From Obrimoposthia wandeli (lineage: Eukaryota): a stretch of 64,000 bases of DNA. The first letter of the stretch is position 1, and each line of letters begins with the position of its first letter. Positions 2,524 through 22,624 of this stretch are shown here, piece by piece. The notes beneath the pieces are model-generated. The model did not search any database. It was given only the letters and a program-made list of their open reading frames with translations, and was not told the DNA's origin. Made by a program: the position numbers and the translations under genes. The stretch covers positions 868,001-932,000 of the forward strand of contig CDROCS010001382.1 of the NCBI GenBank assembly GCA_977020255.1. Direction: 5' to 3'.

Positions 2524-2603
2524 GTCCAGCAGTTCATTTCTGTCTCGCCAATTCGAGAGGACTCATTGATAACCGGAGCAACTAAAGGTATAAATACCGC
2601 AAC

Positions 2604-3500: not shown

Positions 3501-3544
3501 TAGCTCGTCGGACACAGCGAATTCACATAGAATAGAGAGCAAAC

Positions 3545-3885: not shown

Positions 3886-4342
3886 ATTAATTGAATAGGT
3901 TAAGTCGAGAGACGTGTCCTCGAACTAATAAAAGAGATATAAGAAATCGTAAAATAAGAATTGTGAAATAAGATAAAATAATAAGTAAATTGATATCGTA
4001 AACGAATACATAATTGATAAGACAACGGATAATAGAAAAGGACCCGCGTATAATACTAGAAGACAAAGTCAGATTCCCCAGGAAGAGATAAATAATAATA
4101 AATTTAACCGAATTGAACAGGTTCCCCAAACAGATAACAAAGTAACAGAAAAGACTAGAATCGAAGAAAACGTATCAGAAAGAGACGTTGATCAATCAGC
4201 GGTTTCAACCGACAGTTTTAATTTGACTGAATTATTTGGTGACATAAACCCAGAAGAATTTGAAATTGCCAATCCAGTAGTGATTGAGGAAGTTCAAGTG
4301 AAAAATATTGAAGAAATAGTTGAGGAGGATATAGTTGGAAAT

Positions 4343-6457
4343 ATGGCTCAACCAGGAGCTCAAGCAGATAATAATGCAGGAAATAATGTAGGAGAAATGA
4401 ATGCAGAACAGTTGGCACTAGCCTTAAATGCGACGTTGAGACCCAACTTTTCGGGATCATTGCAGATTACAAAGTTTAAAGGAGATGAGGAAAGTATTTG
4501 TGACTTCCTCGCAGAATATTCGAGTTGTGCAGATGTTCAAGGATGGAACGATAGAGAAAAATGTGTCCGTGTACAGGCACACTTAACCGGATTAGCACTT
4601 GAAGTGTATAAACATTTGACAGAAGTAGAACGTTTAGATTGGGCAACGTTGGAAAATGCTTTTATTGGAAAATTGGTATTGGGAGATTTAGCAAAAGTGA
4701 ATAAGCGAATCATGAGAGAACGGAAACAGAAACATGACGAAGGCGTGAATGAATACGCGTATGTTTTGAGAACCTTGGCCGCAAGAGCGTACCCAAGAAG
4801 AATAATGAGAAATCAGGACGGTATTCCTGTAGCTCCAGAAGCACAAGCAGCGGAAAATAACCGGAACCAAGATGAAATGGCAGAAGTTTTGTTAGACATA
4901 TTTAGAGGAGGACTGAAAAAAGATATTAAAGTGTTATTAGCAGTATCGGACACGAATGATTTTGATAACGCCGTACGAAAGGCGAGAGAGATTGAGAAAA
5001 ATATAAAAAATAACGCAGCAATGGCAATTTACGCAATGACTGCAGGTGATGACGATAAGACAAAGGTATTTGTGAATAAGACAGAACCGAGTAATTTTCA
5101 GAATCGAAATTATGGACAAAATAAGTTTGAAAAAGGAGATGAATCCAGTAACGGAAACAGAGATAATTTCCGAAATAGGAATCGAGATGATTCCAGAGGT
5201 AGAAAAAGTAATGATTCGTGGAATAGAAATAGAGATGATTCCAGGAATAGATTTAGTAGAGATAATTCAGGAAATCGCCAACCGTGGAGAGGAGACGATA
5301 GGAATTATAACGCAAACAGAGGAGAGCGAAGTGACTCTCGATTTGAAAATAATACAGGAAGTAGTGACGGAAGATTCAATAATCGAGGAAGCGGTTATAA
5401 TTCCGATAAAGATATACTTACGGGAATTCTCAGGCAAGTGAAGCCGAAGTTGTTCAAAATGTACAAAGATGAAACAACCGATATAACAGACAATTTGACT
5501 AAAGCAGTCAGATCACAAATGTCTGCAGTAAAGAGAATGACTGCGAATCATGTATACCATGCATCAATAGATAGATTTTATGACGGTGAAGTTTTAGCAA
5601 GATTATGTGGAAACCAGACTACGAATAAAAAGTTGATTACGGCGATCACATATCTATGTTTCCAATTGACGGAACGAACGAGCCAACCTCACGAAGTCAA
5701 ACAAGGAATAAATGAAGCGATGTATTTGATCGAAAATGTATTGCAGAGACGAATCGACGAAAACGGAGGTTGGGCAAAATTAAGTGACTACGCTAAAACC
5801 ATTGTGGAAATGAACGAAGACGATGACGAACAATGTCATGAAAATCGTCAAAGAGAAAATAAACAATACCATTCGAAAGAAAGAAACAATCAACCAAATA
5901 TGTCCACAACAATGATGATGATGATGTTAGTAATGTTCATGGGAATGCAACAGGCATCAGGGTTGATAGCATACGACTGTAGCATACCAAAGATGGGACA
6001 AAAGTATTCACTGCTTGACAGCGAAAACTGTCCAGAATCACAACCGTCAAAATTAGAAGTTAAAGGTGTTGAAAACTACTTTGTGTATCAGGATGTTGAT
6101 AAGATACAAGTAGAAGTGAAAGAATGTTCAGTTCATTCAAGTTATTACGAATTCTATTGTGGCCATATAAGTTTTATGTCGGAAATCACACCTACCACAC
6201 CGTACAAAGTACATAAGGTTTTTTCGAGAGATTGCGAAGACGCATTTCGAACAGGAACAATAGAAATAGACAAGAATTACAAGCCTGATGTAAAAGTTGG
6301 AGTAAGACAATACGAAACAGTCACGAGAGTAGGACAACGATGGCCTGATGGATCGTGTGACGGAGGAACAAAAAAACGTGCGTGGAACCAAAGTAACAGA
6401 GTTAGTAATGGACGTAACTTACAAAATAGAATTAAAAACATGGACCGCCAATTTTGA
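4343..6457 (+). CDS. gag: Polyprotein part 1: Gag (~4343-5008), Arg/Asp/Asn/Ser-rich region (~5090-5407), Bcl-2-like domain (~5411-5800), signal peptide (5900-5962), N-terminal part of class III glycoprotein
   Basis: Retrotransposon capsid-like motifs (KFKGDEESICDFL, GWND, QKHDEGVNEYAYVLRTLAARAYP, FRGGL); RRIDENGGWAKLSDY resembles BH2; MMMMMLVMFMGMQQASG|LIAYDC. First ATG at 4343, but the frame is open from 3989. Confidence 0.85.
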   Translation: MAQPGAQADNNAGNNVGEMNAEQLALALNATLRPNFSGSLQITKFKGDEESICDFLAEYSSCADVQGWNDREKCVRVQAHLTGLALEVYKHLTEVERLDWATLENAFIGKLVLGDLAKVNKRIMRERKQKHDEGVNEYAYVLRTLAARAYPRRIMRNQDGIPVAPEAQAAENNRNQDEMAEVLLDIFRGGLKKDIKVLLAVSDTNDFDNAVRKAREIEKNIKNNAAMAIYAMTAGDDDKTKVFVNKTEPSNFQNRNYGQNKFEKGDESSNGNRDNFRNRNRDDSRGRKSNDSWNRNRDDSRNRFSRDNSGNRQPWRGDDRNYNANRGERSDSRFENNTGSSDGRFNNRGSGYNSDKDILTGILRQVKPKLFKMYKDETTDITDNLTKAVRSQMSAVKRMTANHVYHASIDRFYDGEVLARLCGNQTTNKKLITAITYLCFQLTERTSQPHEVKQGINEAMYLIENVLQRRIDENGGWAKLSDYAKTIVEMNEDDDEQCHENRQRENKQYHSKERNNQPNMSTTMMMMMLVMFMGMQQASGLIAYDCSIPKMGQKYSLLDSENCPESQPSKLEVKGVENYFVYQDVDKIQVEVKECSVHSSYYEFYCGHISFMSEITPTTPYKVHKVFSRDCEDAFRTGTIEIDKNYKPDVKVGVRQYETVTRVGQRWPDGSCDGGTKKRAWNQSNRVSNGRNLQNRIKNMDRQF

Positions 6458-8777
6458 TAAAAAGACACAACGAATGATGAAGTATCCGGAATGTAAAATG
6501 ACAGATGCATCTTGTTTTACAGGTGAATCCACAATTGTGTATCACGTGAATCCGAAACAATGCTCTTTAGTATTTTTGAAAGAAATTAGTTTTAATAAAA
6601 TAAAAGGGTTCCTGTATAATAAAGATGGAGAAGGGTTCCTGTATAATAAAGTTGGAGAAGGATTTCACAATGAAACAAGACCAATTCCTATGACGGCGAC
6701 ACCTACACTGTTAATGGCAACATCAACAGAAGAAGGATTGATATTTATTAAAAAGAGAAATAAAGCACGATGCGGAATGACTGTTAGTACTACAAACTAT
6801 CCTGGAATAGTTTTGTCCAGAGAATTAATAGCATTGGCAGAAACCAAGCTAAAACCTAGAGATATGCAGCTACACACGTATTTTAATAATAAAATTGATT
6901 TTTATTATCATAAAGGATTGATGCAAATGGAACAGTTATATCGGATGATGATCGAGAGAGATTGCCAGCTAAACAAAGAGATCGTAAGAACAAAGTTAGC
7001 ATTAGCTATTACGAATCCAGACATGGTAGCACCATTATTACCCTTGGATGAAGGAGTATTTGCTAAAACCATGGGAGAAGTATTGTATACTTACAAGTGT
7101 AATAAAGTAGAAGAACAGTTGAGAAAAACAAGCCGATGTACGAGTGAATTGGCAGTAACACATTATTTAAAAGAACTCTTTGTTGAACCAATCACGAGAA
7201 TGATACTTCCAAAAGACACTCCAACCAAAGAAATCAGCTGCTCTAATATAATGGCACCTGAATATCAGATGACGAATGATCTATGGATAACGCTACCTGA
7301 CCGAAAGCCAACGAAAACTCCAGAGATGATAAAAATGACGAATCTTAAAGGAAAAATGAAATTCGAAGCGGTAGAAAATATGGAAAATGCAGGTTTGTAC
7401 AATGAGAAAGACTTAAAAGCGGCCTGGAACGAAATAATGTTTCCATTAAAAAGAGCCAGAGTACTTACGGAGATGGTGCAGCGAGCATTACCGCCAGGAG
7501 CTAGATATGTGAATTTTGATATGTTATTATTGCCAAGTCATTTCAAGGAAGCAGCACATCAGACACTTAGAAAGATGTGGGGGAAATTCCTTGTTTTAGG
7601 ACAGTTATTTTCAGGTATCATAGGTATTTATGTTATAATTAAATTTGTGCAGGTAATTATAGCCCAGGTGTTATCTACATATAGTTTATACAGGATAGCC
7701 GGAATCACCTGGCAACTTATAATTGGATGTTTTCCATTTTTAGCGAAATATCTAATGCACCATCATCACGAGAACGAGTTGCGAGCCCTCAAGAAGGAGC
7801 AACATCAAACGAGAACCATGATGCGAGAATCAAGAAACTATCGAGACGACAACGACGACGATAATGATAGTCCAGGAGAATATGCAAAGATACCAGGAAA
7901 ACCAAAAATTCCGTTACCAGATAAGGAAGAAGTGGCGTTAAACCTATATCCAATGAAGGAACTAAAGGAAGAGAAGGAAAATTTTAAGAGAGGCATTTTA
8001 ATGATAAGATGGCCTAAAGTGAGCTACAGTGAGATTCCACAAGCAGAGGAAAAATACAAAAAAGATAATTCCAGAAGAATTCTAAAGTCTAGGATATCCA
8101 ATGAGAATCCAAATGCTCCACCACAAGTAGCAGTAACACTGAACGGAAGAGAATATCTTGCTGAAGTTGATACTGGATCTGCAGTATCAGTACTGAGTAA
8201 AGAAATCTTGTCATCAAAAGAATTAAAGGAAGTATGTCCTAGAAAACAGACATTTGTTAACGTGAATGGTACAGATGTAATGTCAGAAGGAACACTGAAA
8301 TGTTCATTGAATATCGATAGAAGAGCATTGCAGTTAAATGCTAGAATATTCAGAGATTGTGGTAGCCCAGTCATGATTGGGATGGACGTAATAAGGATGT
8401 TTGAAGGAATAATTATATTACCAAATAACAAGAGTTATAAGAACGACAGTTCATTGAGAGAGATAAAAATGTTGAGAGGACCTATAGTCGAAAAGGAAAA
8501 ATACACTATGTTCCGTATGGGAAATCCGTACCAAGATAAGAAACAGGAAGCGCTAGTAAAGTCGATACTTCACTACAAAGATGTAAACTCCGGACCACAA
8601 GCTATGACGAGGAGGAAAATAACATATGTGAATCTGTCAGAAAAGGATCCCATGAGATTCGAGAAAAATAGTCGAAAATCACTAGAACTGTACTATTCAA
8701 AAGAAATGGCACGTAAAATGGCAAGAACAGGATTAGAAATGTTAAAGCGACAAGTAGTTATGGTCATGAGGAAGTAG
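6348..8777 (+). CDS. env: Polyprotein part 2 (after +1 shift at the A7 run 6370-6376): rest of chuvirus-like glycoprotein with TM region (to ~7757), retropepsin 1 (~8124-8420), start of BIR1
   Basis: Motifs recalled from chuvirus G proteins (DCQLNKEIVRTKLALAITNPD, GEVLYTYKC, LFVEPITR, AGLYNEKDL, IMFP, hydrophobic C-terminus); VDTGS at 8166 and IGMDV. Confidence 0.85.
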   Translation: MDRVTEEQKNVRGTKVTELVMDVTYKIELKTWTANFDKKTQRMMKYPECKMTDASCFTGESTIVYHVNPKQCSLVFLKEISFNKIKGFLYNKDGEGFLYNKVGEGFHNETRPIPMTATPTLLMATSTEEGLIFIKKRNKARCGMTVSTTNYPGIVLSRELIALAETKLKPRDMQLHTYFNNKIDFYYHKGLMQMEQLYRMMIERDCQLNKEIVRTKLALAITNPDMVAPLLPLDEGVFAKTMGEVLYTYKCNKVEEQLRKTSRCTSELAVTHYLKELFVEPITRMILPKDTPTKEISCSNIMAPEYQMTNDLWITLPDRKPTKTPEMIKMTNLKGKMKFEAVENMENAGLYNEKDLKAAWNEIMFPLKRARVLTEMVQRALPPGARYVNFDMLLLPSHFKEAAHQTLRKMWGKFLVLGQLFSGIIGIYVIIKFVQVIIAQVLSTYSLYRIAGITWQLIIGCFPFLAKYLMHHHHENELRALKKEQHQTRTMMRESRNYRDDNDDDNDSPGEYAKIPGKPKIPLPDKEEVALNLYPMKELKEEKENFKRGILMIRWPKVSYSEIPQAEEKYKKDNSRRILKSRISNENPNAPPQVAVTLNGREYLAEVDTGSAVSVLSKEILSSKELKEVCPRKQTFVNVNGTDVMSEGTLKCSLNIDRRALQLNARIFRDCGSPVMIGMDVIRMFEGIIILPNNKSYKNDSSLREIKMLRGPIVEKEKYTMFRMGNPYQDKKQEALVKSILHYKDVNSGPQAMTRRKITYVNLSEKDPMRFEKNSRKSLELYYSKEMARKMARTGLEMLKRQVVMVMRK

Positions 8778-9277
8778 AACGATGCGTATGGTGTAGAGTA
8801 AAATTTAGAAAATGGGAGAAGAATGAAAACCTTATGAAACGTCATAAAAGAGATGCACCAAATTGTCCATTTCTCTTGAAACTGAAAACTTCAAACGTAC
8901 CAGAAATCCAAATGGGAAAAGCACCCGATTTCGATTACAGTGACGAGATTCCAAAAGGAGAATCAGCTCTAATAGTAGGCAGAGTAATAACAAATAGCCG
9001 AATTGAAGACATATTCGAAGTTATGCGAGAAGTGAACGAATGTGACGAACAATATCGAGAAGTAACTTTCGAAGATCCAAGACTTAAAAAATTTGCAAAA
9101 AAGGGACTTTTTGCTATAAAAAAGGATGGTAAAGACGTAATTAAATGCCACAAGTGTAAAAAAGAACGAATTATCGACAGATATACTCTTGAGTTACCTA
9201 AGAAAACGTTACATAATGAATTTTGCGAATTTTGTAATTCTAAAAACAAAATAAAGCAAAAAGAACAGAAAACCTAA
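8734..9277 (+). CDS. Polyprotein part 3 (after -1 shift near 8733): BIR1 C-terminal half and BIR2
   Basis: CVWC-x16-H-x6-C (RCVWCRVKFRKWEKNENLMKRHKRDAPNCPFL). Adding one T at ggatt(t)aga restores KMARTGF. Second CHKC-x18-H-x6-C is preceded by FAKKGLF. Confidence 0.85.
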
Positions 9278-12034
9278 TGTATAATCGAATATCAAATCAC
9301 ACGGAAAGAGATTTTGGCTCAACAAGACACACCGGTAGTGTCATTCGTGAGAAGACTATATCCAAAAGAAGCAGAAAGAATCAGAGATTTGGTAGAATTA
9401 AAAATAAAAACTACGCGAAACGGATACGGATCGATTTTTGAATTACTAAAAGATAAAGATGACAGTACAATTGAAACAAAAGAGAAAGAGTACATAAACG
9501 AACTAGAATACGTACTAGAAGATCCGGAATGCGCAGTTTGCATGGTCAACAAAATAGAAGTTGCCTTTTTACCATGCGGACATGTAAGAACATGTCGGAG
9601 ATGTGCGAAGGAAATGGTATCATGTCCAATTTGTAGAAGGATAATAGATCGGCAAGTGGGAAATATTAGATTTCACTATCCAAACAAAGGAAGTGGACCG
9701 ACAGAGTTTAATAATTCGATAAATACAATATACCATATGGGAAATATAAATGGAGCACAGCGACCAGCAGCTATCATTAGAGTAAATAATTTAAGAGTAA
9801 AAGCCTTAATTGATACAGGTGCTGTAGCTTCGATAGTAAGTGAAGATTGTTTGACAGAGGAACAAAAACGAACAATGGCAGAACCAGATGAATTCTTGGT
9901 ATCGGTCAATGGAGACCCTGTAAAAGTGACGGGAATATTACCATGTACATTTATAATTGGACGTAATACGATCACTATACCAGTTAGAATCATGAAAGAA
10001 TGTCCTGAACCTACAATTTTAGGAATGGATGTACTATCACAACTCAAAGGGATAAGTATTGATTTACAAGATCCAAGATTGAAGGATAGCACATCAAACA
10101 GACAAATAAACCAAATTGATGTAATTATAGAAAATCCTATAAAAATCGGTAAAAGATCACAATTTGTCATTCAAGGTCACACATTATCAGAAGATAAAGG
10201 ACCAGTTGTGTTCGAACCATCACGGGATTTCATAGAGAAATACGAATTACCAGTTGTGAGTACAGTATGTCTGATTGAAAACCACAAAATACCAGTTAGA
10301 CAGATGAATACAACAAACAATGACATCCTATTATACAGAGGAATGAGGTTGGGAAAGATAGCACAGATGGAGAATTCCACCGTGTGTGCTATGAAACTCG
10401 ATAAAGATACGAATGATTACGAAGAAATAGTAATCCAATCAGAAAGACTGACAACCAGAGAAAAGAAACAATTACTCGACCTAATACATAAATTTCCGAA
10501 AGTAATTGCAAAAAATCCATATGACATAGGAGAAACACCTGTCATAAAACACACAATACCGCTGACAGAAGACAAAGTAGTCAGAAGAAGACCATATCGA
10601 GTACCATTACAGTTACACGACGAAGTCAAAAGCCAGATCGAAGATATGTCTAAAACAGGAGTAATTAGACCGAGTTTTTCACCATTCTCAGCACCTGTAG
10701 TGTTGGTAAAAAAGAAGGATGGGAAAATGAGATTATGTATAGATTTCAGAGAACTGAACAAGATCACAAGAAAAGATGTGTATCCATTACCTAGAATCGA
10801 AGAGATGCTCGATAAATTGGGTAATTCAGATTATTTTACGACATTGGATTTGCAGAGTGGATACTGGCAAATCGAGATAGAGGAAGAGGATAAACACAAA
10901 ACAGCCTTTTCCTGCGGAGATGGACTATACGAATGCGAAAAGATGCCATTCGGACTGACAGGAGCGCCAGCAACATTTCAGCGTTGCATGAATTTTGTAC
11001 TCGCATCGTGTGCAAACACGATGGTTTATATCGATGACATAATAATATTTTCGAAAACGTTCGAAGAACATTTAAAAAATCTTGAAGTTGTATTTAAAAG
11101 ACTGGAAAACGCTAAATTAAAAGTTAAACCTACAAAATGCGAATGGGCTAAAGAGCGAGTAACATTTTTAGGACATCTAGTATCGAAAGAAGGCATCCGA
11201 CCTGATCCAGCAAAGATCGAGAAAGTAAAAGCGCATTTAGCGCCAAAGACTGTTAAGGAAATACAAAGTTTTTTAGGTCTTGCAAACTATTATAGACGAT
11301 TTGTTGAACATTTTTCAGATATAGCAACACCATTGAGAAAGTTGACGAGGAAAGATGAGAAGTTCATATGGGGAAAGGAAGCACAACAAGCGTTCGAACA
11401 TTTGAAAGAAAGACTGATAAAAGCACCAATATTAGCGTTTCCAGATATAAACCGACAATTCATACTTATGACAGATGCAAGTAACTATGCTGTAGGAGCA
11501 GTATTGGGACAAGAGGATGACGAAGGAAGAGAACACGTCATCGCGTATGCGAGTAGAGGATTAAACAGAGCCGAAAGAGGATACTCTGTTATTGAAAAGG
11601 AATGTCTAGCCATAGTGTATTCATGTAGACAGTACAGACACTACTTGCTAGGACAAAAAGTATTACTATATACAGATCACAAACCACTACAGTTCTTATA
11701 TAAACACAGAGACGAGATGAGTAGATTAAATAGATGGTTTCTAAAATTGGCCGAATTTGACCTAGAGATCCTTTATAGAACCGGAAAGTCGAATGGCAAC
11801 GCAGATTGTTTGTCGAGGTTGACAAATGTAGACGAGAAAGGAAACATAATTCCAGAAGAAGAACAAGATGAAACCAACGACCAAAAAGGAAAAGCAAATC
11901 TATTAACGATTTTGCTGAAGACGGGTAAAATAGACAAAGATATCATCAAAGAACAGAAAGAAGATGAAGAACTGAGTCTAATCAAAGAACTGTTGGTGAA
12001 AGGAGATCTAAACGATGAAATGACGAAAAAATAA
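9278..12034 (+). CDS. pol: Polyprotein part 4: UBA-like domain, IAP-type RING (~9527-9650), retropepsin 2 (~9767-10060), reverse transcriptase, RNase H
   Basis: CAVC...LPCGH..C..C....CPICR; LIDTGA; LCIDFRELN, DLQSGYWQI, MPFGL..APATFQ, YIDD; TDAS, EKECLAI, TDHKPL, NADCLSR. Same frame as part 3, separated only by TAA at 9275. Confidence 0.95.
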   Translation, partial: CIIEYQITRKEILAQQDTPVVSFVRRLYPKEAERIRDLVELKIKTTRNGYGSIFELLKDKDDSTIETKEKEYINELEYVLEDPECAVCMVNKIEVAFLPCGHVRTCRRCAKEMVSCPICRRIIDRQVGNIRFHYPNKGSGPTEFNNSINTIYHMGNINGAQRPAAIIRVNNLRVKALIDTGAVASIVSEDCLTEEQKRTMAEPDEFLVSVNGDPVKVTGILPCTFIIGRNTITIPVRIMKECPEPTILGMDVLSQLKGISIDLQDPRLKDSTSNRQINQIDVIIENPIKIGKRSQFVIQGHTLSEDKGPVVFEPSRDFIEKYELPVVSTVCLIENHKIPVRQMNTTNNDILLYRGMRLGKIAQMENSTVCAMKLDKDTNDYEEIVIQSERLTTREKKQLLDLIHKFPKVIAKNPYDIGETPVIKHTIPLTEDKVVRRRPYRVPLQLHDEVKSQIEDMSKTGVIRPSFSPFSAPVVLVKKKDGKMRLCIDFRELNKITRKDVYPLPRIEEMLDKLGNSDYFTTLDLQSGYWQIEIEEEDKHKTAFSCGDGLYECEKMPFGLTGAPATFQRCMNFVLASCANTMVYIDDIIIFSKTFEEHLKNLEVVFKRLENAKLKVKPTKCEWAKERVTFLGHLVSKEGIRPDPAKIEKVKAHLAPKTVKEIQSFLGLANYYRRFVEHFSDIATPLRKLTRKDEKFIWGKEAQQAFEHLKERLIKAPILAFPDINRQFILMTDASNYAVGAVLGQEDDEGREHVIAYASRGLNRAERGYSVIEKECLAIVYSCRQYRHYLLGQKVLLYTDHKPLQFLYKHRDEMSRLNRWFLKLAEFDLEILYRTGKSNGNADCLSRLTNVDEKGNIIPEEEQDETNDQKGKANLLTILLKTGKIDKDIIKEQKEDEELSLIKELLVKGDLNDEMTKK

Positions 12035-13909
12035 TCGATAAAAGAAGGAATCTTGTATATTGTCAACAATGTCGGAAAGATAGTAGTAGTAATTCCGAAG
12101 TCATTGAAAACAGCAGTGATGATCCAGTATCACGATGGAACACTAGGAGGACATCTGTCAGGACGAAAGACAATAGCCAGAATCAAAGAGAAGTACCATT
12201 GGGATGGTATGGAAGACGACATAAAACAATGGTGTAAACAATGTAAAGTATGTTTAACCAGAAAAGACACTGGAACTCGTACTAAAGTTCCACTGAAACC
12301 AATGCCAGTTCCTTTGGCACCAATGGAATTCACAGCGATGGATATATTGGGACCATTGAGAGAATCAAGTAAAGGAAACAAGTACGTCATAGTATTTACG
12401 GACTACATGACGAGATGGGTAGAAGCATACCCCATGCAAAATCAGAAGGCTGAAACAATAGCGCAGATCTTAGTGGAAGAGATAATATTTCGATACGGAG
12501 TGCCTAGAAAGTTGTTAACAGATCAAGGAAAGAACTTCACTGGAGAAGTAATAAAAGCAGTATCGAAGATATTCGGAATCATGAAGTTACAAACTTCACC
12601 ATATCACCCACAAACCAATGGTCTAGTAGAAAGGTTTAATAAAACTTTATGTATGATGGTACAATCCTATTGCTCAGACAAACAAGAGGATTGGGATAAA
12701 TATTTACCTTCATGTTTATATGCTTACAGGAATTCAGTTCGAGAGGCGACGGGTCACACACCATTATATCTGATGTATCTCAGACAGAACAATATGCCAA
12801 TGGATCTGGAGTGGACCGAACCAACATCTCAATATTTAGAAACTGAACAATACATTGTCGTCATGAAAGAAAGATTACAAGATGCTTGGACCAAAGCCGG
12901 ATTGAAGTTGAAATTCAATCAAGAAGGTTACAAGGAACAATATGACAAAAAGGCAAAACCACATGAATTTAGAGTCGGAGATCAAGTGATGATATTTTAT
13001 CCAGTCATCGAACCAGGTCTATCGTTTAAACTTCATAGACCATACAAAGGCCCATACAAGGTGATACAGACAACCTCAACGAACTTGAAAGTAATCAACG
13101 AGGAAAATCGGAACAAGGAACCGATGATTGTACATGCAAATCGATGTAAATTAGTACCAAATAAAGATAACGCGTCACGATATGAGTTAAGATCACAAAA
13201 TTTGAAGCCGAATACCAATACCATTAAACTTACACGAATGGTAAGTGATCGGAACTACATAAACATGATGACAAGTGGTAGCGAGGAAAAACCAGCGAGA
13301 ATTGGTATGCTCAGAGTGAAGCACCAAAAGGAAAAAGAAGTAATCCGACACATCGCACCACAAGAAGACATAATAGTTGTTTTCGAAAAAACACAACCAA
13401 CAGATGTGGCGAAAGAAGTCATTGTGAAAGATGCACTAACAAACGAATTTCTGTGCGAACTTAGAGTATCATACTACGACGGAAATACACTAGTCGCAGC
13501 ACTACATCAAAACTCCAATGTGTTTACGACTGAGAAAGTGATAATCGAAATCACATTGACACCAAACATAGTTGCATGGCAGAACTATGACAGTACTGAA
13601 GCAGGACTAGCCAGTCAGGAAGAAAAGGAACCGGCCGGTGGTCACATACTGCATGGTACACCAAAAAGACTCAAACAAGAATACCACGATGTGATAATGG
13701 TATTACGTAATTCACATGAGAGAAGAGATATAATGAGAGTTCATTTAATCGACGCTGACACTGAAAAGATAATCTGTCAGATGGACACCAAATACTTTGA
13801 CGGAAAGACCATTGTATGTAGTATACCGGAATCTCACCGGTTAAACACAGATCAAACGGAAGTATCTGTAAGGTTGAGCGTAATAGAAGGATTTCATTCG
13901 CCAACCTAA
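12035..13909 (+). CDS. pol: Polyprotein part 5: integrase (HHCC, DDE core, GPY) plus two copies of a beta-rich repeat domain
   Basis: YHDG..GGH...C..C, MDILGP, TDQGKNF, PYHPQTNGLVERFN, YKGPYKV; repeats carry Y(Y/F)DG.T. In frame across TAA at 12032. Confidence 0.93.
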   Translation, partial: SIKEGILYIVNNVGKIVVVIPKSLKTAVMIQYHDGTLGGHLSGRKTIARIKEKYHWDGMEDDIKQWCKQCKVCLTRKDTGTRTKVPLKPMPVPLAPMEFTAMDILGPLRESSKGNKYVIVFTDYMTRWVEAYPMQNQKAETIAQILVEEIIFRYGVPRKLLTDQGKNFTGEVIKAVSKIFGIMKLQTSPYHPQTNGLVERFNKTLCMMVQSYCSDKQEDWDKYLPSCLYAYRNSVREATGHTPLYLMYLRQNNMPMDLEWTEPTSQYLETEQYIVVMKERLQDAWTKAGLKLKFNQEGYKEQYDKKAKPHEFRVGDQVMIFYPVIEPGLSFKLHRPYKGPYKVIQTTSTNLKVINEENRNKEPMIVHANRCKLVPNKDNASRYELRSQNLKPNTNTIKLTRMVSDRNYINMMTSGSEEKPARIGMLRVKHQKEKEVIRHIAPQEDIIVVFEKTQPTDVAKEVIVKDALTNEFLCELRVSYYDGNTLVAALHQNSNVFTTEKVIIEITLTPNIVAWQNYDSTEAGLASQEEKEPAGGHILHGTPKRLKQEYHDVIMVLRNSHERRDIMRVHLIDADTEKIICQMDTKYFDGKTIVCSIPESHRLNTDQTEVSVRLSVIEGFHSPT

Positions 13910-14722
13910 CCGGAAGTAACAAACAATAAAATCATTAAAGCAACGGCAGAGTTACGCATTGACAGCGGATACCGCAAGTGGGAAGCTAAAAATAAACCAC
14001 AACGAATCAATATGATCCGAGAACAAGTGACAACCTCAATCCAACCAAAATATCATGCTGAAATAGTATCATCCGCACCAAGTGTGATTACATCGATAAA
14101 CGACGAAATTATAATTTTACTAAAAAATCGATGGCCGTCATCAACCGAGATACGAGTCAATTTAATTAATTATGCGAAAACACCGATATCTAAGCTGAAT
14201 GTCACCTATTTCGATGGATTGACTATCATGGGTAAATTGGAAACAATTGTCATGTGCTATGGAGCACAGTTCCAAGTTGAGATACTTAAGGATAGTGTAA
14301 TACCGTATCCGATTCACAGATACGCAGGACCAGTCAATCCAATTATTCTAACCCCTTCATTAATTTCAGTTCAGACAGACATACCAGAATACCCTTCGAG
14401 CGAGTCTAGTCAAGACAGCGAACCTGAAAGTAGCGATCCAGAATCAACAGAATCCGAAGATAACATAATAGAGCGATTCGAAAAAACCATGGAGGTTGAA
14501 TTCGCTAAAGAAAGCAGAAAAAGACAAAACATAGAATTCGTGAAACAGAATATACAAGAAAGACGAATTAAATCTGCAGAAGAGACCGAGTCGGAAGAGG
14601 AACCAACAAAGGAACAGACATCAGAGACAAAGATGAATATCTCTCCAGCAATACGAATGCTGAGAGGAAAGAAACTAGCGAAACTATCCAACATCGACGG
14701 ACAAATAAAGAAGAGATTATAA
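13910..14722 (+). CDS. Polyprotein part 6: third copy of the repeat domain and an acidic Ser-rich linker
   Basis: In frame across TAA at 13907; EIIILLKN...RVNLI...TYFDGLTI aligns with the copies at ~13298-13560 and ~13637-13890. Confidence 0.75.
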   Translation, partial: PEVTNNKIIKATAELRIDSGYRKWEAKNKPQRINMIREQVTTSIQPKYHAEIVSSAPSVITSINDEIIILLKNRWPSSTEIRVNLINYAKTPISKLNVTYFDGLTIMGKLETIVMCYGAQFQVEILKDSVIPYPIHRYAGPVNPIILTPSLISVQTDIPEYPSSESSQDSEPESSDPESTESEDNIIERFEKTMEVEFAKESRKRQNIEFVKQNIQERRIKSAEETESEEEPTKEQTSETKMNISPAIRMLRGKKLAKLSNIDGQIKKRL

Positions 14723-17700
14723 AGACTAAAACTTGAAGAGTCAGAATTAATGCCACCAATGAGTGAGATCATTCCAGGTAAGTTATACCTCGGAAATGTG
14801 GAAGATGCAACAGACGAAAAGAAACTGTCGGAACAAGGGATAACATACGTGATCAACGTTACAATGAATCACAAATCACAATATCAGACGATCAGAGCCA
14901 TGATGTTAAGAGTAAAAGACTCAATGGAAGCTAACCTTCTCGAATGGTTCGTAGAAACAAACGAGATACTTCACAGAGAACTCCAAAACCAAGGAAAAGT
15001 GTTGGTACATTGTCAGAAAGGAATCTCCCGATCAGCAACCCTAGTATTAGCGTATCTAATAAAGACTAGACGAATGCAGGTACTAGAAGCGTTGAAATAC
15101 CTACAGGAAAGAAGAAGTATCGCGAACCCAAACCTTAATTTTTTGGGACAATTGTCAAATTATCAACTCCTGTTGCAAGAACAGAGACGGATGGACGACA
15201 TCCCTGAGGATCCAAAGGAAAAGAATTTCCTCCAAGCACTATCGTTGACCGGGTTATTCTTAGCCGGAGTCGACAAAATTACGCAGATAATGCCAAAAGT
15301 ATTTTTATGTTATCCAGGAGATATAGATACTGCTGGATTAAAGTTCCACAGTATCAACCGAGTAATTAATATTGTTGAAGTCGGAAATGAGATAATCAGT
15401 CTGTGTCAAAATACTGAAGATGACACAACTCGATACATACATGCTTCCAATCGAGAGATAAATGATGCACAACAACATCTGATGAAATTGACTCAAACCA
15501 TTCAAGCCGAAGTCACAGAAGGAAACGGCGTTCTGATATATCAGAAAAAAGGTACAATGTTAGCTCCAACCATAGGTGTATCCTTGTTGGTAGAGTACCA
15601 TGGTCATACACCAGAAGAAGCGATGGTTTATATCAAACAGAATAGACCAGACACGGAATTCAAACCGTTACTCGTTCGAGAAATAGATAAATATTCCGAA
15701 AAGAGGAAGCAACAACAAGAAACAAATGAAGCTACCACAACAGTGCCCAGCTATCAATACCAAAGATTGCTAGCACTAGGCTTGTTAAGTTGTCTAATGC
15801 CGATAACGGGAGCACAAGAGATAGGCTCCAACCACGGAAATAGTTCATGGTTCACAGAAATCAACAACTACATCATACAGTACCATACACCAGCACTGAT
15901 GATGCTATTAGTGTTGTTAGGACTAATTGATGTGTGGGTTATCCGAAAATGTCTCCGATCCATGAGAACCGACAGTAAAAGATTCCAGTTTGTGAAAATG
16001 AAGAGACCAAATGGACCAACGAACCAAGTACTTGTGTATCTAGACGAAAGGATCGAGGATAACATAGTAAATGTAGCGATATTCTATCCACAAAACAGAG
16101 TACTGAATCAATTCCGAATAGATTACGAAGCTGACCGACAGCGCACACTTGACCGAATATCAGCAACATTCGCCGAATGCAAGCGAAGAAAACGAATTGT
16201 AAAGGAAATACAAAAAGATGCGGATAAAAAAGGTCCGACGTATATATTCGACGGCGATGTCATCAAAACACGTGAGTATGGAAGTAAGAGAGTGATAATT
16301 GAAACGATGGAAGAACATAAAAAATGTTTGTCCGCCAAAAATGGATTCGGAAAGTTGATGATACAAGGTAAACAGGTACAGTTGATTATCGGAAAAACTG
16401 GAATCGAAGAAATGTCAGAACAACGACAGACAACAAAACGACCTAACCAGAAACAGATATCTCTCAAACGAATGATAATTAAAACCCTTTGCAAAAGGAC
16501 AATCAAGGCCCTGTGCACCGTTGCACAAGGATTGATCTACGGAGTAGTAATTGGATTGGTACTACAAGCCATGCCAACCAGTAAAGCTGAATTGATGACA
16601 CTATCCGAATATAATTTACATTTGAGAAATCTAGACAACACCCTAGAAATAATCAAGACGTCCCACAGTAAAGCCGTGATGATCATGTGTGTGAAAGGAT
16701 GTCCAGGACGAATGTGTATAGTCCCAGCGACCGAAATGAAAACACTTAATGGACATTATAGAGTTAGTGTTGTTACATGTGAAGATTACACATTTAGACA
16801 AACTAAAATAGTACTTCTCAGTGACATGTCCAACCAAAGTGTACATAAATTTAAAATATTAACCATCAAGAGCAAAGGGATACCAGCAATACGTTATGGT
16901 ATTCTAGAATTGGTTAATCCAATACTGGCATTGATCATTGGATTTATAATATTAATATTACTCATCTTGTTTTGTTGTACAAAGATAGAGTTGAGATCAA
17001 AAAAGAAACGTCATGATCTCGCAAGACAAACAGGTCAAATGAATTTACAAAAATTCAACACAAGTATACCAAGACCAGCATTCCTAAATGAACCAGCACC
17101 AGAGTACCAGCCAACGATATATGAACATATCGAGGAAAGACCGTACTATATGAGTAACTTGAGTTGTTCCAGAGAAGTTCCTGAGTTTCGGAACCGGACG
17201 ATCATAGGAATCATGCTGATCATACAAATTACCACGACCAAGGCTAGTTATGAGATCATGATCAGTAAATGGAGACAAGATACAATACGGGCGTTATACA
17301 TAGAAATTCCCCTATTAAAAACAAATCACGTAGTAGACATTCACCTACAGACGTCAGCAACCGACAATGTCGATCAGAAATTGTATGTCATCCGACAGGT
17401 CAGAATAAAGATCGACCAACGTACACCTTACTACCGACTGATATTATTCTATCATGAAAGGGTGTTATACCTACGGATAACGATATCAAAGAGGAAACGG
17501 ATTATTCAAAGTATCCGAACAAAGTCAATAATATTGCCTAGAGATGAGCGCATCTGGAAAGTTGTCGACAGGATTATGATCACAGGTAGACGACGTAAAA
17601 CCGTATGGAATTCCGTTAGAATATTTTTCAGATTGTTAGAAACCGACCATGCAACAGTGGCGTGTCCCAATCCAGATGGTGGAATCAGATTTGAATTGCA

Positions 17701-18487
17701 AAACCAAATGTTAGTACCACATTTTGATGCAGAATGTATATGTAACCGAATTCCCAGCAATGCTAGAGAGACCACTACCATAATCATGGTAATAACAGGT
17801 GAAATATTCTACATAACTCTAAGATACCAGACACGTCGATTCCGTGGACTCGGTATAAGTATTAAACCCAGGAAAATCAATTCCGGAAAACCAATCAAGG
17901 TCATAAAAAAGGAAAAGGTGAAAGGAAGTAAACGTCACTCCAAAATGCCAGTCATAATCAAAGAGAAGACAAAGATAAACGGAAGTAAACGTCATTCCGA
18001 GAAGCCAAAAATAGTCATAACCAAGGCAGAAGTGAAAGGAAAAGAGCTCGAGCCCAGAAACCAAAGTACAATTATTAAGAGGACAAGAGTGAGGGGAACG
18101 ATCCCACTAGATCCCAAACATAATTTCCAATCTAAATTAATAATACCTGTTCCACCGGAAACAAAATATCCAAATCCGCGAGTTTTTAGAAAATCGGACA
18201 TAATACATGGAAACCGATCAACACCAATGGAAACGCCATTCAAACCGACAAACAACAAAATGGAATACGATTATCAATCGTTTGACAGCGGAATAACAGC
18301 GGTCAATGCTCTAATTGGAATGGCCGTAGTGTCAACAGCAGTGGTCCTATTGACAGTCGTGTGCGTGAAAGGCAGTCAAGTATGCCCAAGAATACGACGG
18401 AAATGCGAAGGACTGCGATGCTGTAACACACCCACAATGGAGGAAGTGGAATTGCGACCCTTACCTCCGCCTCCCATCAAGATATGA
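14723..18487 (+). CDS. Polyprotein part 7: dual-specificity phosphatase, inactive second DSP domain, then alternating signal-like and TM segments
   Basis: SEIIPGKLYLG...VINVT...HCQKGISRS...PNLNFLGQL; second copy ITQIMPKVFL...VINIV...YQKKGTMLA; hydrophobic segments at ~15767, 15893, 16511, 16922, 17198 and 18308. In frame across TAA at 14720. Confidence 0.88.
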   Translation, partial: RLKLEESELMPPMSEIIPGKLYLGNVEDATDEKKLSEQGITYVINVTMNHKSQYQTIRAMMLRVKDSMEANLLEWFVETNEILHRELQNQGKVLVHCQKGISRSATLVLAYLIKTRRMQVLEALKYLQERRSIANPNLNFLGQLSNYQLLLQEQRRMDDIPEDPKEKNFLQALSLTGLFLAGVDKITQIMPKVFLCYPGDIDTAGLKFHSINRVINIVEVGNEIISLCQNTEDDTTRYIHASNREINDAQQHLMKLTQTIQAEVTEGNGVLIYQKKGTMLAPTIGVSLLVEYHGHTPEEAMVYIKQNRPDTEFKPLLVREIDKYSEKRKQQQETNEATTTVPSYQYQRLLALGLLSCLMPITGAQEIGSNHGNSSWFTEINNYIIQYHTPALMMLLVLLGLIDVWVIRKCLRSMRTDSKRFQFVKMKRPNGPTNQVLVYLDERIEDNIVNVAIFYPQNRVLNQFRIDYEADRQRTLDRISATFAECKRRKRIVKEIQKDADKKGPTYIFDGDVIKTREYGSKRVIIETMEEHKKCLSAKNGFGKLMIQGKQVQLIIGKTGIEEMSEQRQTTKRPNQKQISLKRMIIKTLCKRTIKALCTVAQGLIYGVVIGLVLQAMPTSKAELMTLSEYNLHLRNLDNTLEIIKTSHSKAVMIMCVKGCPGRMCIVPATEMKTLNGHYRVSVVTCEDYTFRQTKIVLLSDMSNQSVHKFKILTIKSKGIPAIRYGILELVNPILALIIGFIILILLILFCCTKIELRSKKKRHDLARQTGQMNLQKFNTSIPRPAFLNEPAPEYQPTIYEHIEERPYYMSNLSCSREVPEFRNRTIIGIMLIIQITTTKASYEIMISKWRQDTIRALYIEIPLLKTNHVVDIHLQTSATDNVDQKLYVIRQVRIKIDQRTPYYRLILFYHERVLYLRITISKRKRIIQSIRTKSIILPRDERIWKVVDRIMITGRRRKTVWNSVRIFFRLLETDHATVACPNPDGGIRFELQNQMLVPHFDAECICNRIPSNARETTTIIMVITGEIFYITLRYQTRRFRGLGISIKPRKINSGKPIKVIKKEKVKGSKRHSKMPVIIKEKTKINGSKRHSEKPKIVITKAEVKGKELEPRNQSTIIKRTRVRGTIPLDPKHNFQSKLIIPVPPETKYPNPRVFRKSDIIHGNRSTPMETPFKPTNNKMEYDYQSFDSGITAVNALIGMAVVSTAVVLLTVVCVKGSQVCPRIRRKCEGLRCCNTPTMEEVELRPLPPPPIKI

Positions 18488-18611
18488 TAAGTCAGAGGAG
18501 GTTGTAGATAAATTAGTGTGTGAAATATGTAGAAATATCTAGAAGCGATTGTACAAATAAGTAGAAATATGTAAAACTCATGTAGAAATTAATCATCATC
18601 ATGTATTTAGA

Positions 18612-18911
18612 ATGTCCGAAGAATGCCCAATATGTTTGGAAGATCTAACCGAACAAAGAACAAGACCCGAAACCTGCAACCATTTACATCACGAGGAATG
18701 TTTATCAAAATGGATCAGAACTTATGGAAAATTCGTACATCCAACATACCCTCGTTGCCCTGTATGCAGAAGACAATTCACAAAGTTCATCATGATAGAA
18801 CCCAACCAAAAGGATGTATATGTACAGGTGATATTCTGTTGGAAGAATTTCAGAGAGTGTTGGTGTTACTACTGTCTGTCAGAACGACAAAATCCGACCA
18901 CTTTTGTGTAA
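18612..18911 (+). CDS. Small RING-H2 protein 1 (99 aa), putative E3 ligase
   Basis: CPIC-x13-CNHLHHEEC...W...CPVC; acceptor TATTTAG ends 1 nt before the ATG. Confidence 0.85.
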   Translation: MSEECPICLEDLTEQRTRPETCNHLHHEECLSKWIRTYGKFVHPTYPRCPVCRRQFTKFIMIEPNQKDVYVQVIFCWKNFRECWCYYCLSERQNPTTFV

Positions 18912-18971
18912 ACATCGCACAACCACCAGTCCTCAATCGAGCCCAAATTCAACATTAACCCTCTCACAGTA

Positions 18972-19277
18972 ATGTCTGGAGAATGTTCCATCTGCTACGA
19001 GAACATCGTGGACCTCTACACCAAACCCAACAACTGCAACCACCAGTTCCACATCGAATGCCTCGAGACGTGGATCCCAATAGCCAACAACAACAATCCC
19101 CTCGACTACCCAAACTGCCCGATGTGCAGAGCAACCTTCTCGGTGCACTACGTCTACAACCGGGACAGCCTCCAAGCAGTGGTACCCATTGTACACTGTT
19201 GGAAAAACATCTGCGACTGCTGGTGTTCGTTCTACGTGGAGGAGCGACGCACAGGCCAGCCCAACACCCAGCAGTAA
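18972..19277 (+). CDS. Small RING-H2 protein 2 (101 aa), paralog of protein 1
   Basis: CSIC...CNHQFHIEC..W...CPMC and shared C-terminal CWKN..CWC; acceptor TTAACCCTCTCACAG ends 2 nt before the ATG. Confidence 0.85.
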   Translation: MSGECSICYENIVDLYTKPNNCNHQFHIECLETWIPIANNNNPLDYPNCPMCRATFSVHYVYNRDSLQAVVPIVHCWKNICDCWCSFYVEERRTGQPNTQQ

Positions 19278-19628
19278 CCGAAGGTAACTTTCTGACTTAA
19301 AACGTGACATCATGAACTACCCCTGTGTATCGCATACCGCGATAAATTAGCTACCATAATTGTAATCATAATTGTATAATCTTGTGAAACTGTAAAATGA
19401 CCATTACCATTTTTATGTATGTTGTTTATTTGAAATTGTAATTATTATACTGAAACAAAAGACAATTTTTATGCTTAGTATAAATGTGAAAAAACATGCC
19501 TAAAATCGGAACAAAACTCGGTAGGATTAAAATACTAAGGTTTATAATATTGAAACTAAAATATTAATTGCGTAAATTAATGTTAAAACCAATCGAACCC
19601 AAATTAAAAAAGTAATTATTTTGTGCAG

Positions 19629-20141
19629 ATGATTTGTTCAATTTGCCTCGAGAAGATCTGGGCAACGTCGGCATCCCCTGTCGGTTGTCGACAGAAATTC
19701 CACGAGTCCTGCATCTACTTGTGGGCCAGAGCTCGACTCCCCGGCCACATCACCTGCCCGATGTGCCGGGCACCCTTTACCGAGTGGACGCTCCAGTGCC
19801 GTGGACGACTCATGGGCACCCGCTCGCCCACCAGCTGCATTGGTGGCGAGCACTGTCAGTGCTCCATATGCCTCGCGCGCCGTCGCGACGCACGGCTCTC
19901 CATCCGAGAGAGGTGGCGATCCAGCCACGACAGCCACTCGTGGCAGCATAACCGACAAATGTGGCTCCAAAACCACAATTTGTACAGATCAGACACCGAC
20001 CTGTTTCGCCCAAGCCCACACCTCAGCATCGCACAGCAGATGGCCCTATTCCTGGAAGACACCCCATCCTTCCCGGACTTGCCACTGGAGCAAGTCCTGT
20101 TCTTCTTGGACGACCGAAACACGCCGGACGTGGACAATTAA
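19629..20141 (+). CDS. RING-H2-variant protein 3 (170 aa), GC-rich
   Basis: CSIC...CRQKFHESC..W...CPMC (first His replaced by Gln) plus C-x4-HCQCSIC; acceptor TTATTTTGTGCAG directly precedes the ATG. Confidence 0.8.
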   Translation: MICSICLEKIWATSASPVGCRQKFHESCIYLWARARLPGHITCPMCRAPFTEWTLQCRGRLMGTRSPTSCIGGEHCQCSICLARRRDARLSIRERWRSSHDSHSWQHNRQMWLQNHNLYRSDTDLFRPSPHLSIAQQMALFLEDTPSFPDLPLEQVLFFLDDRNTPDVDN

Positions 20142-20250: not shown

Positions 20251-20256
20251 AATAAA
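20251..20256 (+). terminator. Candidate internal polyadenylation signal after RING ORF 3
   Basis: AATAAA ~110 nt after the stop and ~195 nt before the 3' LTR; weak because the region is AT-rich. Confidence 0.35.
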
Positions 20257-20450
20257 TTAGTGAATATTTTAGACTCTGTCTAAATATTCGCTATTTTGAC
20301 GAAAACCGAGTTTTGGCAAAACGTTTGGGCCTGTTTGATGAGTTGAATGACTGAATTAGTAGGGATGAACTTAAAATCAACAGCCCAGAGGCTTGTAAGA
20401 GTAAAATCGATACGTTCCGGGGACGTAACTTTTTTAGAACCCCCGAGATA

Positions 20451-22624
20451 TGTTAGGATTAGGTTTTGTTAAAATTAAATAATTAGTTGAATTTATAGTG
20501 AATTTATAGTAAAATGAAAATCCTTGAAAACAAGGTTAAAATTAAATAAAATTAAAATTTAGAATTAAAATGTTAAAAGTAAAAGGAAAATTGAATATTA
20601 GAGGACCACGAAGGTCGTGTGAAATGCGTGAATATATATAATATTAGTTTAAAAAACAAAAGTGCAAAAAAGAAAATTAATTAGAAGATTAACGAAAAGG
20701 AAATTAAGAAACGAAGAAAATAATCCACGTCGTCAGCCACGTCACTAACAGAAGTAGCAGCTGTTTTCCTGAGGTGAGTGGTGACCGGAATTTGCATTAA
20801 TTAACTTACTAATTTCAGGACCGAGAAGCAAGAGGAATCGATTGTCAACTGAGTGACAGACACATACCTGCATAAGCTCTTCAAAATCTACACAGAAATA
20901 AGCAAGAGGAATCGATTGTCAACTGAGTGACAGACACATACCTGCATAAGCTCTTCAAAATCTACACAGAAATAGACTATATAAGTCTACACTGGAATAA
21001 CCGCAAACCACACACGATCCCCAAAAAAGAAGAGAAGAAGTCATATTATCAAGGAGAAGAAACAGAGTAGACGAATCCACGAATTAAAGGTAAAAGGAGA
21101 AACATCAGCATCACCAAAATTAATACAATACGCGCAGGTCTCGCAGCAACCAGATCTCACTGTCGATATCAACAGCTCAATTCCACTGTTGCAGTTCAAT
21201 CGTGCAAGTCGCCGCTGCTCAATTCACAGTTGCAGCCCAAGCTCTCAAATTCGCCGTTGTTCAATTCCACAGTTGCTGTCCAGCAGTTCATTTCTGTCTC
21301 GCCAATTCGAGAGGACTCATTGATAACTGGAGCAACTAAAGGTATAAATACCGCAACTTTAAAGGAATTTTGTAACAGTTATTTGAATTTGGAATCATAA
21401 ATTTAAAGGAATTTTGTAACAATTATTTGAATTTGGAATCATAAATTTAAAGGAATTTTGTAACAGTTATTTGAATTTGGAATCATAAAATTAAAGGAAT
21501 TTTGTAACAATTATTTGCATTGGGAATCATAAATTTAAAGGAATTCTGTAACAATTATTTGCATTGGGAATCATAAATTTAAAGGAATTCTGTAACAATT
21601 ATTTGAATTGGGAATCATAAATTTAAAGGAATTTTGTAACAGTTATTTGAATTTGGAATCATAAATTTAAAGGAATTTTGTAACAATTATTTGAATTGGG
21701 AATCATAAATTTAAAGGAATTTTGTAACAATTATTTGCATTGGGAATCATAAATTTAAAGGAATTCTGTAACAATTATTTGAATTGGGAATCATAAATTT
21801 AAAGGAATTTTGTAACAGTTATTTGAATTTGGAATCATAAATTTAAAGGAATTTTGTAACAATTATTTGAATTGGGAATCATAAATTTAAAGGAATTTTG
21901 TAACAATTATTTGAATTTGGAATCATCAAATTAAAGGAATTTTGTAACAATTATTTGAATTGGGAATCATAAATTTAAAGGAATTTTGTAACAATTATTT
22001 GAATTTGGAATCATCAAATTAAAGGAATTTTGTAACAATTATTTTGAATTGGGAATCATAGATTTAAAGGAATTTTGTAACAATTAATTGAAATGGGAAT
22101 CATAAATTGAAAAAGATACTTTGAACCCTAAAATAATCTGTTTTATCAAAAAGATCTAAACTACCCATAATTTTGAGCAACCAGCTCTAAATTCGTTCCC
22201 TATTTTTAGAGCAACCAGCTCTCCAAAATCTGTGCCCTGAGTTTATCCACAAGCTAGAGTAAAGACTCAAATAAGCTAACCGACCTTAACGTAAAATCGA
22301 TACGTGGTTCATCCCCACTTGTGTAGAGACTTACAGAAGTCTTAGGAATTTTACTACCACTTTTTAGAGAATACGTACGTAAACGTATTGTTGTGTTTAA
22401 TCTAGTGTGTTAACAATAAACGATTTCCTACATTAGAAAGCGTTGTTTTAAACCCTTCAGATTAAGAGACATCAAAAACAAACACCTTCAGATAAGCAAT
22501 TGAGACAGGCAACCATAACATTAAGTAGGCCACGACCAACTTTAAGACCTGCTTCTACAGAACTCACGTTGGGGCCCTCCACATTCAAGAGGATCTATAT
22601 AAGTTTCATATAGAAACCCCAACA
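20451..22624 (+). repeat. 3' LTR (2,174 bp)
   Basis: Same termini as the 5' LTR; about 10 substitutions counted by eye outside the arrays; carries a 74-bp duplication (20827-20900/20901-20974), ~17 copies of the 44-bp unit and one fewer 42-bp unit. Confidence 0.97.
21358..22107 (+). repeat. 44-bp minisatellite in 3' LTR (~17 copies)
   Basis: Same unit as 2604-2958, with variants ttgcattggg and gaattctgta seen only here. Confidence 0.95.

Follow-up and report, generated by a model that had tools for sequence, protein, structure and literature searches.

Three RING-H2 genes and a cis-spliced intron at the 3' end of a Burro-like LTR element in Obrimoposthia wandeli

The LTR element and its RING genes

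The window analyzed here, a stretch of 64,000 nucleotides from Obrimoposthia wandeli (assembly GCA_977020255.1, contig CDROCS010001382.1, positions 868,001 to 932,000 of the forward strand), contains a gypsy-type LTR retroelement with three small RING ORFs downstream of its polyprotein. The features are listed in Table 1. The element is flanked by a target duplication of 4 bp (1725-1728 and 22625-22628), and its LTRs are 98–99% identical to each other outside differences in repeat number. LTR lengths in the family range from 1.7 to 2.5 kb. The family comprises at least 3,237 copies, as a 24-mer across acceptor 1 and the RING1 start is present at 3,237 places in the genome. The candidate primer-binding site is presumably tRNA-Met-like; no plain purine tract was seen immediately upstream of the 3' LTR.

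Table 1. Features of the LTR element in the window (all coordinates are window positions).
Feature	Position	Strand	Remarks
Whole LTR element	1729-22624	+	TG..CA ends; gypsy-type; young; 20.9 kb
5' LTR	1729..3474	+	TG..CA; includes 44-bp tandem array
ATG-free leader (LTR R/U5 + 5' UTR)	1911..4342	+	gag start at 4343
LTR mini-intron, 45 nt	2052..2096	+	donor at 2052, as originally predicted
Primer-binding site	3483..3500	+	PBS-like TGG motif, 8 nt past 5' LTR
Candidate leader donor	3883..3888	+	GTAATT kept in 5/5 other copies covering the site
Polyprotein region	4343..18487	+	broken in window copy
GATAAATTAG motif 1	18507..18516	+	candidate weak poly(A) signal past polyprotein stop
Putative acceptor 1	18604..18610	+	AG ends 18610, then a+ATG at 18612
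RING1	18612..18911	+	99 aa; RING-H2 and C-terminal four-Cys motif
Putative acceptor 2	18955..18969	+	AG ends 18969, then ta+ATG at 18972
RING2	18972..19277	+	101 aa; RING-H2 and four-Cys motif
Cis intron, 345 nt	19284..19628	+	GT..AG; donor 6 nt past RING2 stop, acceptor abuts RING3 ATG
GATAAATTAG motif 2	19341..19350	+	candidate poly(A) signal within intron
RING3	19629..20141	+	170 aa; RING-H2, four-Cys motif, tail
AATAAATTAG motif 3	20251..20260	+	canonical poly(A) hexamer, 200 nt upstream of 3' LTR
3' LTR	20451..22624	+	

The window copy lacks approximately 2 kb near 5.3–5.4 kb that other copies have, fuller copies being about 23 kb long. Since other copies read through the breaks of the window copy, with frames around the env match that stay open for as many as 5,301 codons, the region probably encodes a single polyprotein. 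Its Pfam domains are gag, a Monjiviricetes-type fusion protein, protease, BIR, RING, protease-RT-RNaseH, integrase and two DUSP-like domains, besides transmembrane segments, and the order PR-RT-RNaseH-IN is present. The env-like fusion protein lies in frame between gag and pol; PF24664 (fusion protein), BIR (40.4 bits) and RING (zf-C3HC4_3, 44.7 bits) are found within one natural frame of 1,687 aa. No Pfam match to MATH, ankyrin, BCL2 or dUTPase was found in the ORFs scanned, a scan that covers the 2-kb stretch absent from the window copy only in part. The two DUSP-like domains are located after the integrase (14750-15700), the first with an intact HCxxGxSRS loop and the second without it.

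Searches by RING, env and BIR for sister LTR families returned other RING genes, members of the same family and Polinton-like elements. The latter (L159-L167; C609, C3067 and C760 in G000) carry integrase, ATPase, capsid- and polymerase-like ORFs, as judged by eye. Their BIR-RING IAP genes are 47–53% identical to the IAP end of the LTR element and their DUSP-like ORFs 31–33% identical to its phosphatase, and it is possible that genes have been exchanged between these two classes of mobile elements. Elsewhere in the window, a host DDAH gene is located at 46194-49158 (+), with trematodes as best named matches (58–62%), and host exons at 25040-41392 (-) were read by eye as HPPD. Judging by a GC content of 28% and by the Burro-like layout of the element, the host is likely a triclad. 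An intronless host ORF of 535 aa at 58145-59752 (-) has weak RING matches and no real similarity to RING1-3.

The original prediction of three RING ORFs in a retroelement-borne cassette, the first two 60 nt apart, was confirmed. All three proteins score above the zf-RING_2 cut-off of 27.3 bits (41.6 for RING1, 36.5 for RING2 and 28.1 for RING3), and their ORFs lie inside the LTR element, separated by gaps of 124 nt (polyprotein to RING1), 60 nt (RING1 to RING2) and 351 nt (RING2 to RING3). They are all of the C3H2C3 type and have the C-terminal four-Cys motif in common. Among copies, the zinc ligands are kept in 92–100% for RING1 and RING2 and in 87–100% for RING3, the fastest-diverging part, which in the window copy lacks one ligand kept by most other copies. 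The positions taken here to be the E2-binding Ile/Trp/Pro and the linchpin Arg are occupied in all three RINGs, with Trp, Pro and Arg present in 92–99% of copies. PDB profile matches of the RINGs are E3 RINGs. A structure model of RING1 (mean pLDDT 78) has viral RING E3s as its top fold matches (ICP0, PE38; E ~1e-4), and its Atlas neighbors (0.91–0.94) are mostly viral RING clusters; the single-sequence fold of RING2 has a pLDDT of 44. In sequence searches, the relatives of RING1 are generic RINGs with an identity of at most 53% over matched stretches, none of them a close relative spanning the full protein, and the search with RING2 returned no match. Judged from these features, RING1-3 are likely small RING-H2 E3 ubiquitin ligases. 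RING-H2 ORFs of about 300 aa that lack introns have also expanded strongly in the genome (G000, e.g., L168 and L169), 150 of 22,354 candidates having been scored. Some of these ORFs form tandem arrays, and their identity to RING1-3 is only 25–33%.

Selection on the ORFs was estimated from variants found in at least three rows (loci L057-L115); these counts include many indel-rich loci among L083-L112 and L200-L214 that may hold assembly errors. Omega is 0.21 for RING2, 0.21 for RING3 and 0.30 for the end of the polyprotein, and for RING2 it rises from 0.21 in its own frame to 2.32 in another frame. By this measure, purifying selection acts on both RING2 and RING3. For RING1, with an omega of 1.01 overall and 0.74 within the domain, purifying selection is not clearly indicated; its changes cluster at residues 33–48 and 57–83 and the ligands hold, a pattern that may reflect either relaxed or diversifying selection. 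The start, all ligands and the length of RING1 are kept across subfamilies. As to base composition, GC3 is 0.78 in RING2 and 0.73 in RING3, compared to 0.39 in RING1 and 0.34 in the polyprotein region, in a host of 28% GC.

Splice sites, leader and candidate poly(A) signals

The distance from the RING2 ATG to the RING3 ATG is usually about 657 nt, and 312 nt in two of 50 loci. Those two loci lack exactly 19284-19628, a GT..AG stretch whose ends have only AG in common, so microhomology does not account for its loss. A search for natural junctions with exact 18-mers identified five intronless copies in subfamily A against 1,478 intron-bearing ones, and two more were found among 15 odd contexts in subfamily B (L202 and L211). 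In a RING3 tree of 72 rows, the five intronless copies of subfamily A need four changes, and the tree test rejects a single clade (p-AU 3e-55). Each of them is nearer to intron-bearing copies on both flanks, with the exception of one near-identical pair. The RING3 sequences of L202 and L211 are about 75% identical. The intron was thus lost independently at least four and probably six times, where the separate counting of L202 and L211 is based on their mutual identity. Since such repeated, precise loss is the trace of reverse-transcribed spliced RNA, the AG at 19628 is a working cis splice acceptor with 19284 as its demonstrated donor. Splicing to the RING3 AG had been predicted from donors at 2052 or about 3882; the acceptor is real, and the donor demonstrated for it is a local one that was missing from that prediction. 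The donor GT is kept in 64 of 68 mappable rows and the intron contains eight ATGs as well as motif 2. In its spliced form, RING3 is left as a second cistron, 6 nt behind the RING2 stop. In G000, five matches to the donor motif recur at a spacing of about 900 bp (C82:76678-80299), a part of the RING cassette being tandemly repeated there.

An acceptor-like AG precedes each of the RING ATGs by 0–2 nt, as originally proposed, that of RING3 ending at 19628 immediately before the ATG at 19629. In the element, 36 of 389 ATGs (9.3%) have a YAG ending 0–2 nt upstream, which gives a chance of ~8e-4 for three out of three; the true odds are milder, as the test is post hoc and RING1 and RING2 are paralogs (~37% identical). 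When at least seven pyrimidines in the 12 upstream positions are required as well, 10 of 389 ATGs remain, the three RING ATGs among them. Among mappable copies of 76 loci, the AG is kept in 74/74 at site 1, 72/74 at site 2 and 65/66 intron-bearing rows at site 3. The YAG-before-ATG arrangement is kept in two subfamilies, as illustrated by subfamily B, where acceptor 2, the intron donor and acceptor 3 are each intact in 19 of 20 copies. The TTAAC upstream of site 2, in contrast, is private to the window copy (1/30 copies) and hence no conserved branch point. A crude position matrix built on the acceptors of 15 LTR mini-introns puts site 3 at the top of 1,369 AGs, with site 1 at 475 and site 2 at 391, whereas a position-free pyrimidine metric places sites 1, 2 and 3 in the top 1.4, 0.4 and 7.2% of 1,366 AGs, respectively. 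The two models disagree on sites 1 and 2, and the AGs at 18610 and 18969 are best described as putative splice acceptors.

Two further observations concern these sites. A motif, CAATCGA(G/A)CCCAAATT, is located 25–45 nt upstream of RING2 and RING3 (18927-18945 and 19589-19607); it is well kept before RING2 and variable before RING3, and is likely a remnant of duplication. Moreover, acceptor 3 contains an in-frame ATG in three of 20 subfamily-B copies (L185, L199 and L093), six bases upstream of the regular start.

At the other end of the element, the 2,432 nt from 1911 to 4342 do not contain a single ATG, against a mean of 46.7 and a minimum of 30 in 300 shuffles, and four other LTRs of 1.7–2.3 kb have 0–1 ATG each. 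The lack of ATGs up to the gag start suggests that transcription starts near 1910-2050 and that ribosomes scan the leader. LTRs across the family (1930-3470; L002-L049) have a conserved first ~200 nt followed by many unrelated R/U5 types, most of them nearly ATG-free and with one or more mini-introns of 38–51 nt. Both predicted donors exist, at 2052 (GAG/GTGAGT, 6/6 consensus positions) and at 3883 (GAG/GTAATT, 5/6). GT..AG units of 38–51 nt are found in 26 of the 36 LTR starts examined. In a sister LTR type, which in two contigs is found twice at element-like spacing, the same exons occur with the mini-intron (2 matches) and without it (8/9 matches). Donors of the 2052 type therefore work, as had been supposed, but only with their own acceptor about 45 nt downstream has this been demonstrated.

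Genomic copies joining the leader to a RING gene were searched for as foreign sequence upstream of each acceptor. No splice join was found in 14 odd contexts at acceptor 1 (2 + 12 matches; 13 distinct places) or in 44 at acceptor 2 (30 inspected, the other 14 as 22-mers only), and none of the three odd contexts at acceptor 3 is a leader junction. Copies joining 3883 to a RING acceptor were not found either. The odd-context searches did not yield any processed copy at the RING1 and RING2 acceptors. As RNA spliced from an LTR donor would lose the primer-binding site, this blank is weak for 2052 and real for 3883. One candidate, L086 (~10264 to 18970), was rejected because a 12-nt near-repeat at both ends marks it as a microhomology deletion. 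Other large deletions (L014, L020, L024, L027, L033, L084, L105, L106, L111 and C3522) were discarded as splices, their ends not being GT..AG. Four sequencing runs from one sample and one study have coverage in all of 30 bins and resemble genomic DNA; that the RING-acceptor AGs are not among the ends of the joints listed for these runs is evidence neither way.

Between 1 and 22624, ATAAATTAG occurs three times, after the stops of the polyprotein, RING2 and RING3. Motif 1 is kept in 68 of 86 distinct rows and in 13/20 copies of subfamily B, motif 2 in 73 of 84 and 19/20, and motif 3 in 40 of 44 distinct rows near the window subfamily and 3/20. A role of these motifs as poly(A) signals is a lead suggested by their placement, and it is weakened by the figures for motifs 1 and 3 in subfamily B. 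GAUAAA is absent from the four enriched poly(A) variants named for Schmidtea mediterranea in the cited account (PMC5068929).

Possible routes to expression of the RING genes

Placed after the polyprotein stop, the RING ORFs need a route to translation of their own. On genomic RNA they would be out of reach, because ribosomes scan and the ORFs lie behind a polyprotein of ~5,300 codons. Four ATGs lie ahead of acceptor 1 in the stretch that follows the polyprotein stop, nine separate the start of RING1 from that of RING2 and the intron holds eight, so leaky scanning is blocked. The preferred explanation, with a probability of roughly 0.55, is that RING1-3 are accessory genes, that the AG before RING3 works in cis and that each ORF is the first cistron of its own mRNA, produced by cis splicing from the leader to alternative acceptors. 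A single LTR promoter near 1910-2050 would give rise to an RNA in which a donor in the leader is spliced to 18611, 18970 or 19629, removing all upstream ATGs and leaving the RING ATG 0–2 nt past the junction. The donor at 19284 would close the RING1/RING2 exon, in competition with the weak poly(A) signal at 19341. The products, predicted to be RING-H2 E3 ligases, would then target host proteins by which the element or its host cell is held back.

Demonstrated parts of this scheme are the element itself with its ORFs, the 19284-19628 intron, the LTR mini-intron donor and the ATG-free leader; we infer the long-range joins between leader and RING genes, the E3 activity and any use of a spliced leader (SL). 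As for a working acceptor per ORF, one of three is demonstrated and two are conserved. Several findings speak against alternative splicing from the leader. The sole demonstrated RING splice puts RING3 in second position and is rare (5 against 1,478 exact 18-mers), leader-RING joins are lacking among the copies searched, and the 2052-type donor is seen with a nearby acceptor only. Furthermore, acceptors 1 and 2 are poor in one of the two models, and the omega of RING1 is 1.01.

SL trans-splicing is a less likely route. Cleavage at the weak 18507 signal would resolve the polyprotein RNA like an operon, the downstream piece receiving an SL at 18610 or 18969. RING3 would be released likewise after a cut at 19341, and the 19284 splice would mean that the RING3 acceptor is now and then used in cis. 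The host gene matching flatworms best (DDAH) fits this idea, as free-living flatworms have SL trans-splicing and operons, the spacing of which peaks at around 100 bp (PMC8629364), and motif 1 is located ~100 nt upstream of acceptor 1. In flatworms, acceptors are often common to cis and trans splicing (PMC12582326), and the subgenomic RNA of Cer1 occurs with and without SL1 (PMC3315495). However, site 3 is cis-spliced in seven copies, and acceptors that resolve operons are described as strongly depleted of cis splicing (PMC12582326), which counts mildly against SL trans-splicing. A poly(A)-like motif is absent between RING1 and RING2, the gap of 351 nt between RING2 and RING3 exceeds the published operon threshold of 300 nt, and 7 of 20 subfamily-B copies have a changed motif 1. 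The ATG at which flatworm SLs are reported to end (PMC12582326) would lie in a different frame from RING1 and, at RING2, would be followed by a stop; this is a weak argument, since in S. mansoni the SL ATG is given as in frame for only 28% (PMC9851317).

It is rather improbable that the local intron is the only real one, with RING1 and RING2 expressed from internal starts in the 18.5–18.9 kb spacer and RING3 by re-initiation 6 nt past the RING2 stop on spliced RNA. The demonstrated splice yields exactly this stop-6 nt-start layout while taking out the eight ATGs, and a 10-bp repeat array is located upstream of RING1 (18522-18589). Yet the conserved YAGs right before RING1 and RING2 would be left unaccounted for, and a TATA-like hexamer at ~19480 differs in most contigs compared (19482 A>G). 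Re-initiation, moreover, is usually poor past an ORF of 101 codons unless a special element is present.

Equally doubtful is a more elaborate version of trans-splicing, in which the element would have an operon of E3 ligases. Weak poly(A) cuts after the polyprotein and RING2 would leave pieces to be capped by the host SL at the three AGs, where cis splicing would compete. RING1 and RING3, which change fast, would destroy host silencing or cell-death proteins as a counter-defense of the Vif/ICP0 kind in an invertebrate retroelement, and the element would trade IAP and phosphatase genes with the co-resident Polinton-like elements.

Least probable is that the AGs before RING1 and RING2 are unused leftovers of duplication and RING1 a passenger: the paralogy of RING1 and RING2, an omega of ~1 for RING1, the matrix ranks of 475 and 391 and the similarity of young copies, which makes conservation in part a matter of recent ancestry, agree with it, but RING2 shows purifying selection when read in its own frame (0.21 vs 2.32) and thus needs some route to translation, and the start, ligands and length of RING1 persist across subfamilies.

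Significance and comparison with known systems

Burro-type elements are known for their apoptosis and ubiquitin domains, and the expression of genes outside the polyprotein is the question addressed here. The present family offers exact junctions, and one intron is proven from DNA alone by spliced copies that were repeatedly retrotransposed. If leader-to-acceptor splicing holds, an invertebrate LTR element with more than 3,000 copies would combine accessory gene control in the style of complex retroviruses with self-contained E3 ligases, the targets of which would name the host defenses that the element faces.

The closest known relatives are Burro and GYPSM1, giant gypsy-like elements of planarians (PMC6431247). 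As described in that source, the polyprotein of Burro is single and huge; it has a mononegavirus-like fusion protein placed between gag and pol, and it contains BIR and RING domains and a CCHC knuckle. Accessory ORFs and thousands of copies per flatworm genome complete the features that Burro has in common with the present element. The single Burro polyprotein of ~4,900–5,100 aa compares to open frames of up to 5,301 codons. In contrast, Burro exceeds 30 kb, against 20.9 kb for the window copy and ~23 kb for fuller copies, and the MATH, ankyrin, BCL2 and dUTPase domains reported for it have no match in the scanned ORFs. The DUSP domains after the integrase do not feature in the Burro descriptions cited, nor do separate RING-H2 ORFs with splice signals at the 3' end, of which the present element has three. 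The element is called Burro-like and not Burro because it falls short of the >30-kb length. Burro1 expression (PMC8532177) and planarian genome composition (PMC11410931) are treated elsewhere, and one Burro-type element, with Burro1 B-IAP, is reported at second hand to help host stem cells (PMC13465017). A literature search found no account of flatworm LTR elements that have spliced RING genes as accessory ORFs, and the main Burro papers (Grohme 2018; Lee 2026) or their supplements may contain one.

Cer1 of C. elegans, also gypsy-related, is described as producing GAG and POL from unspliced RNA and a novel protein from a subgenomic mRNA that is spliced and that occurs both with and without SL1 (PMC3315495). 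It is the precedent for subgenomic RNA with splicing and an SL cap. The extra protein of Cer1 has peptides in common with GAG (PMC3315495), whereas the present element has separate RING genes downstream of the polyprotein, each preceded by an AG of its own.

With small viral RING E3s, such as herpesvirus ICP0, baculovirus PE38, IE2 and CG30 and the RING proteins of NCLDV, the likeness is limited to a generic RING. Complex retroviruses, including lentiviruses, express accessory genes via alternative 3' acceptors. Under the preferred explanation, the likeness to these viruses would comprise an LTR promoter, a leader donor, a ladder of acceptors and an internal donor that closes the middle exon. 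By its domain layout, however, the element is not a retrovirus, and its leader joins are deduced rather than observed. Moreover, its accessory proteins bring their own RING instead of recruiting host ligases.
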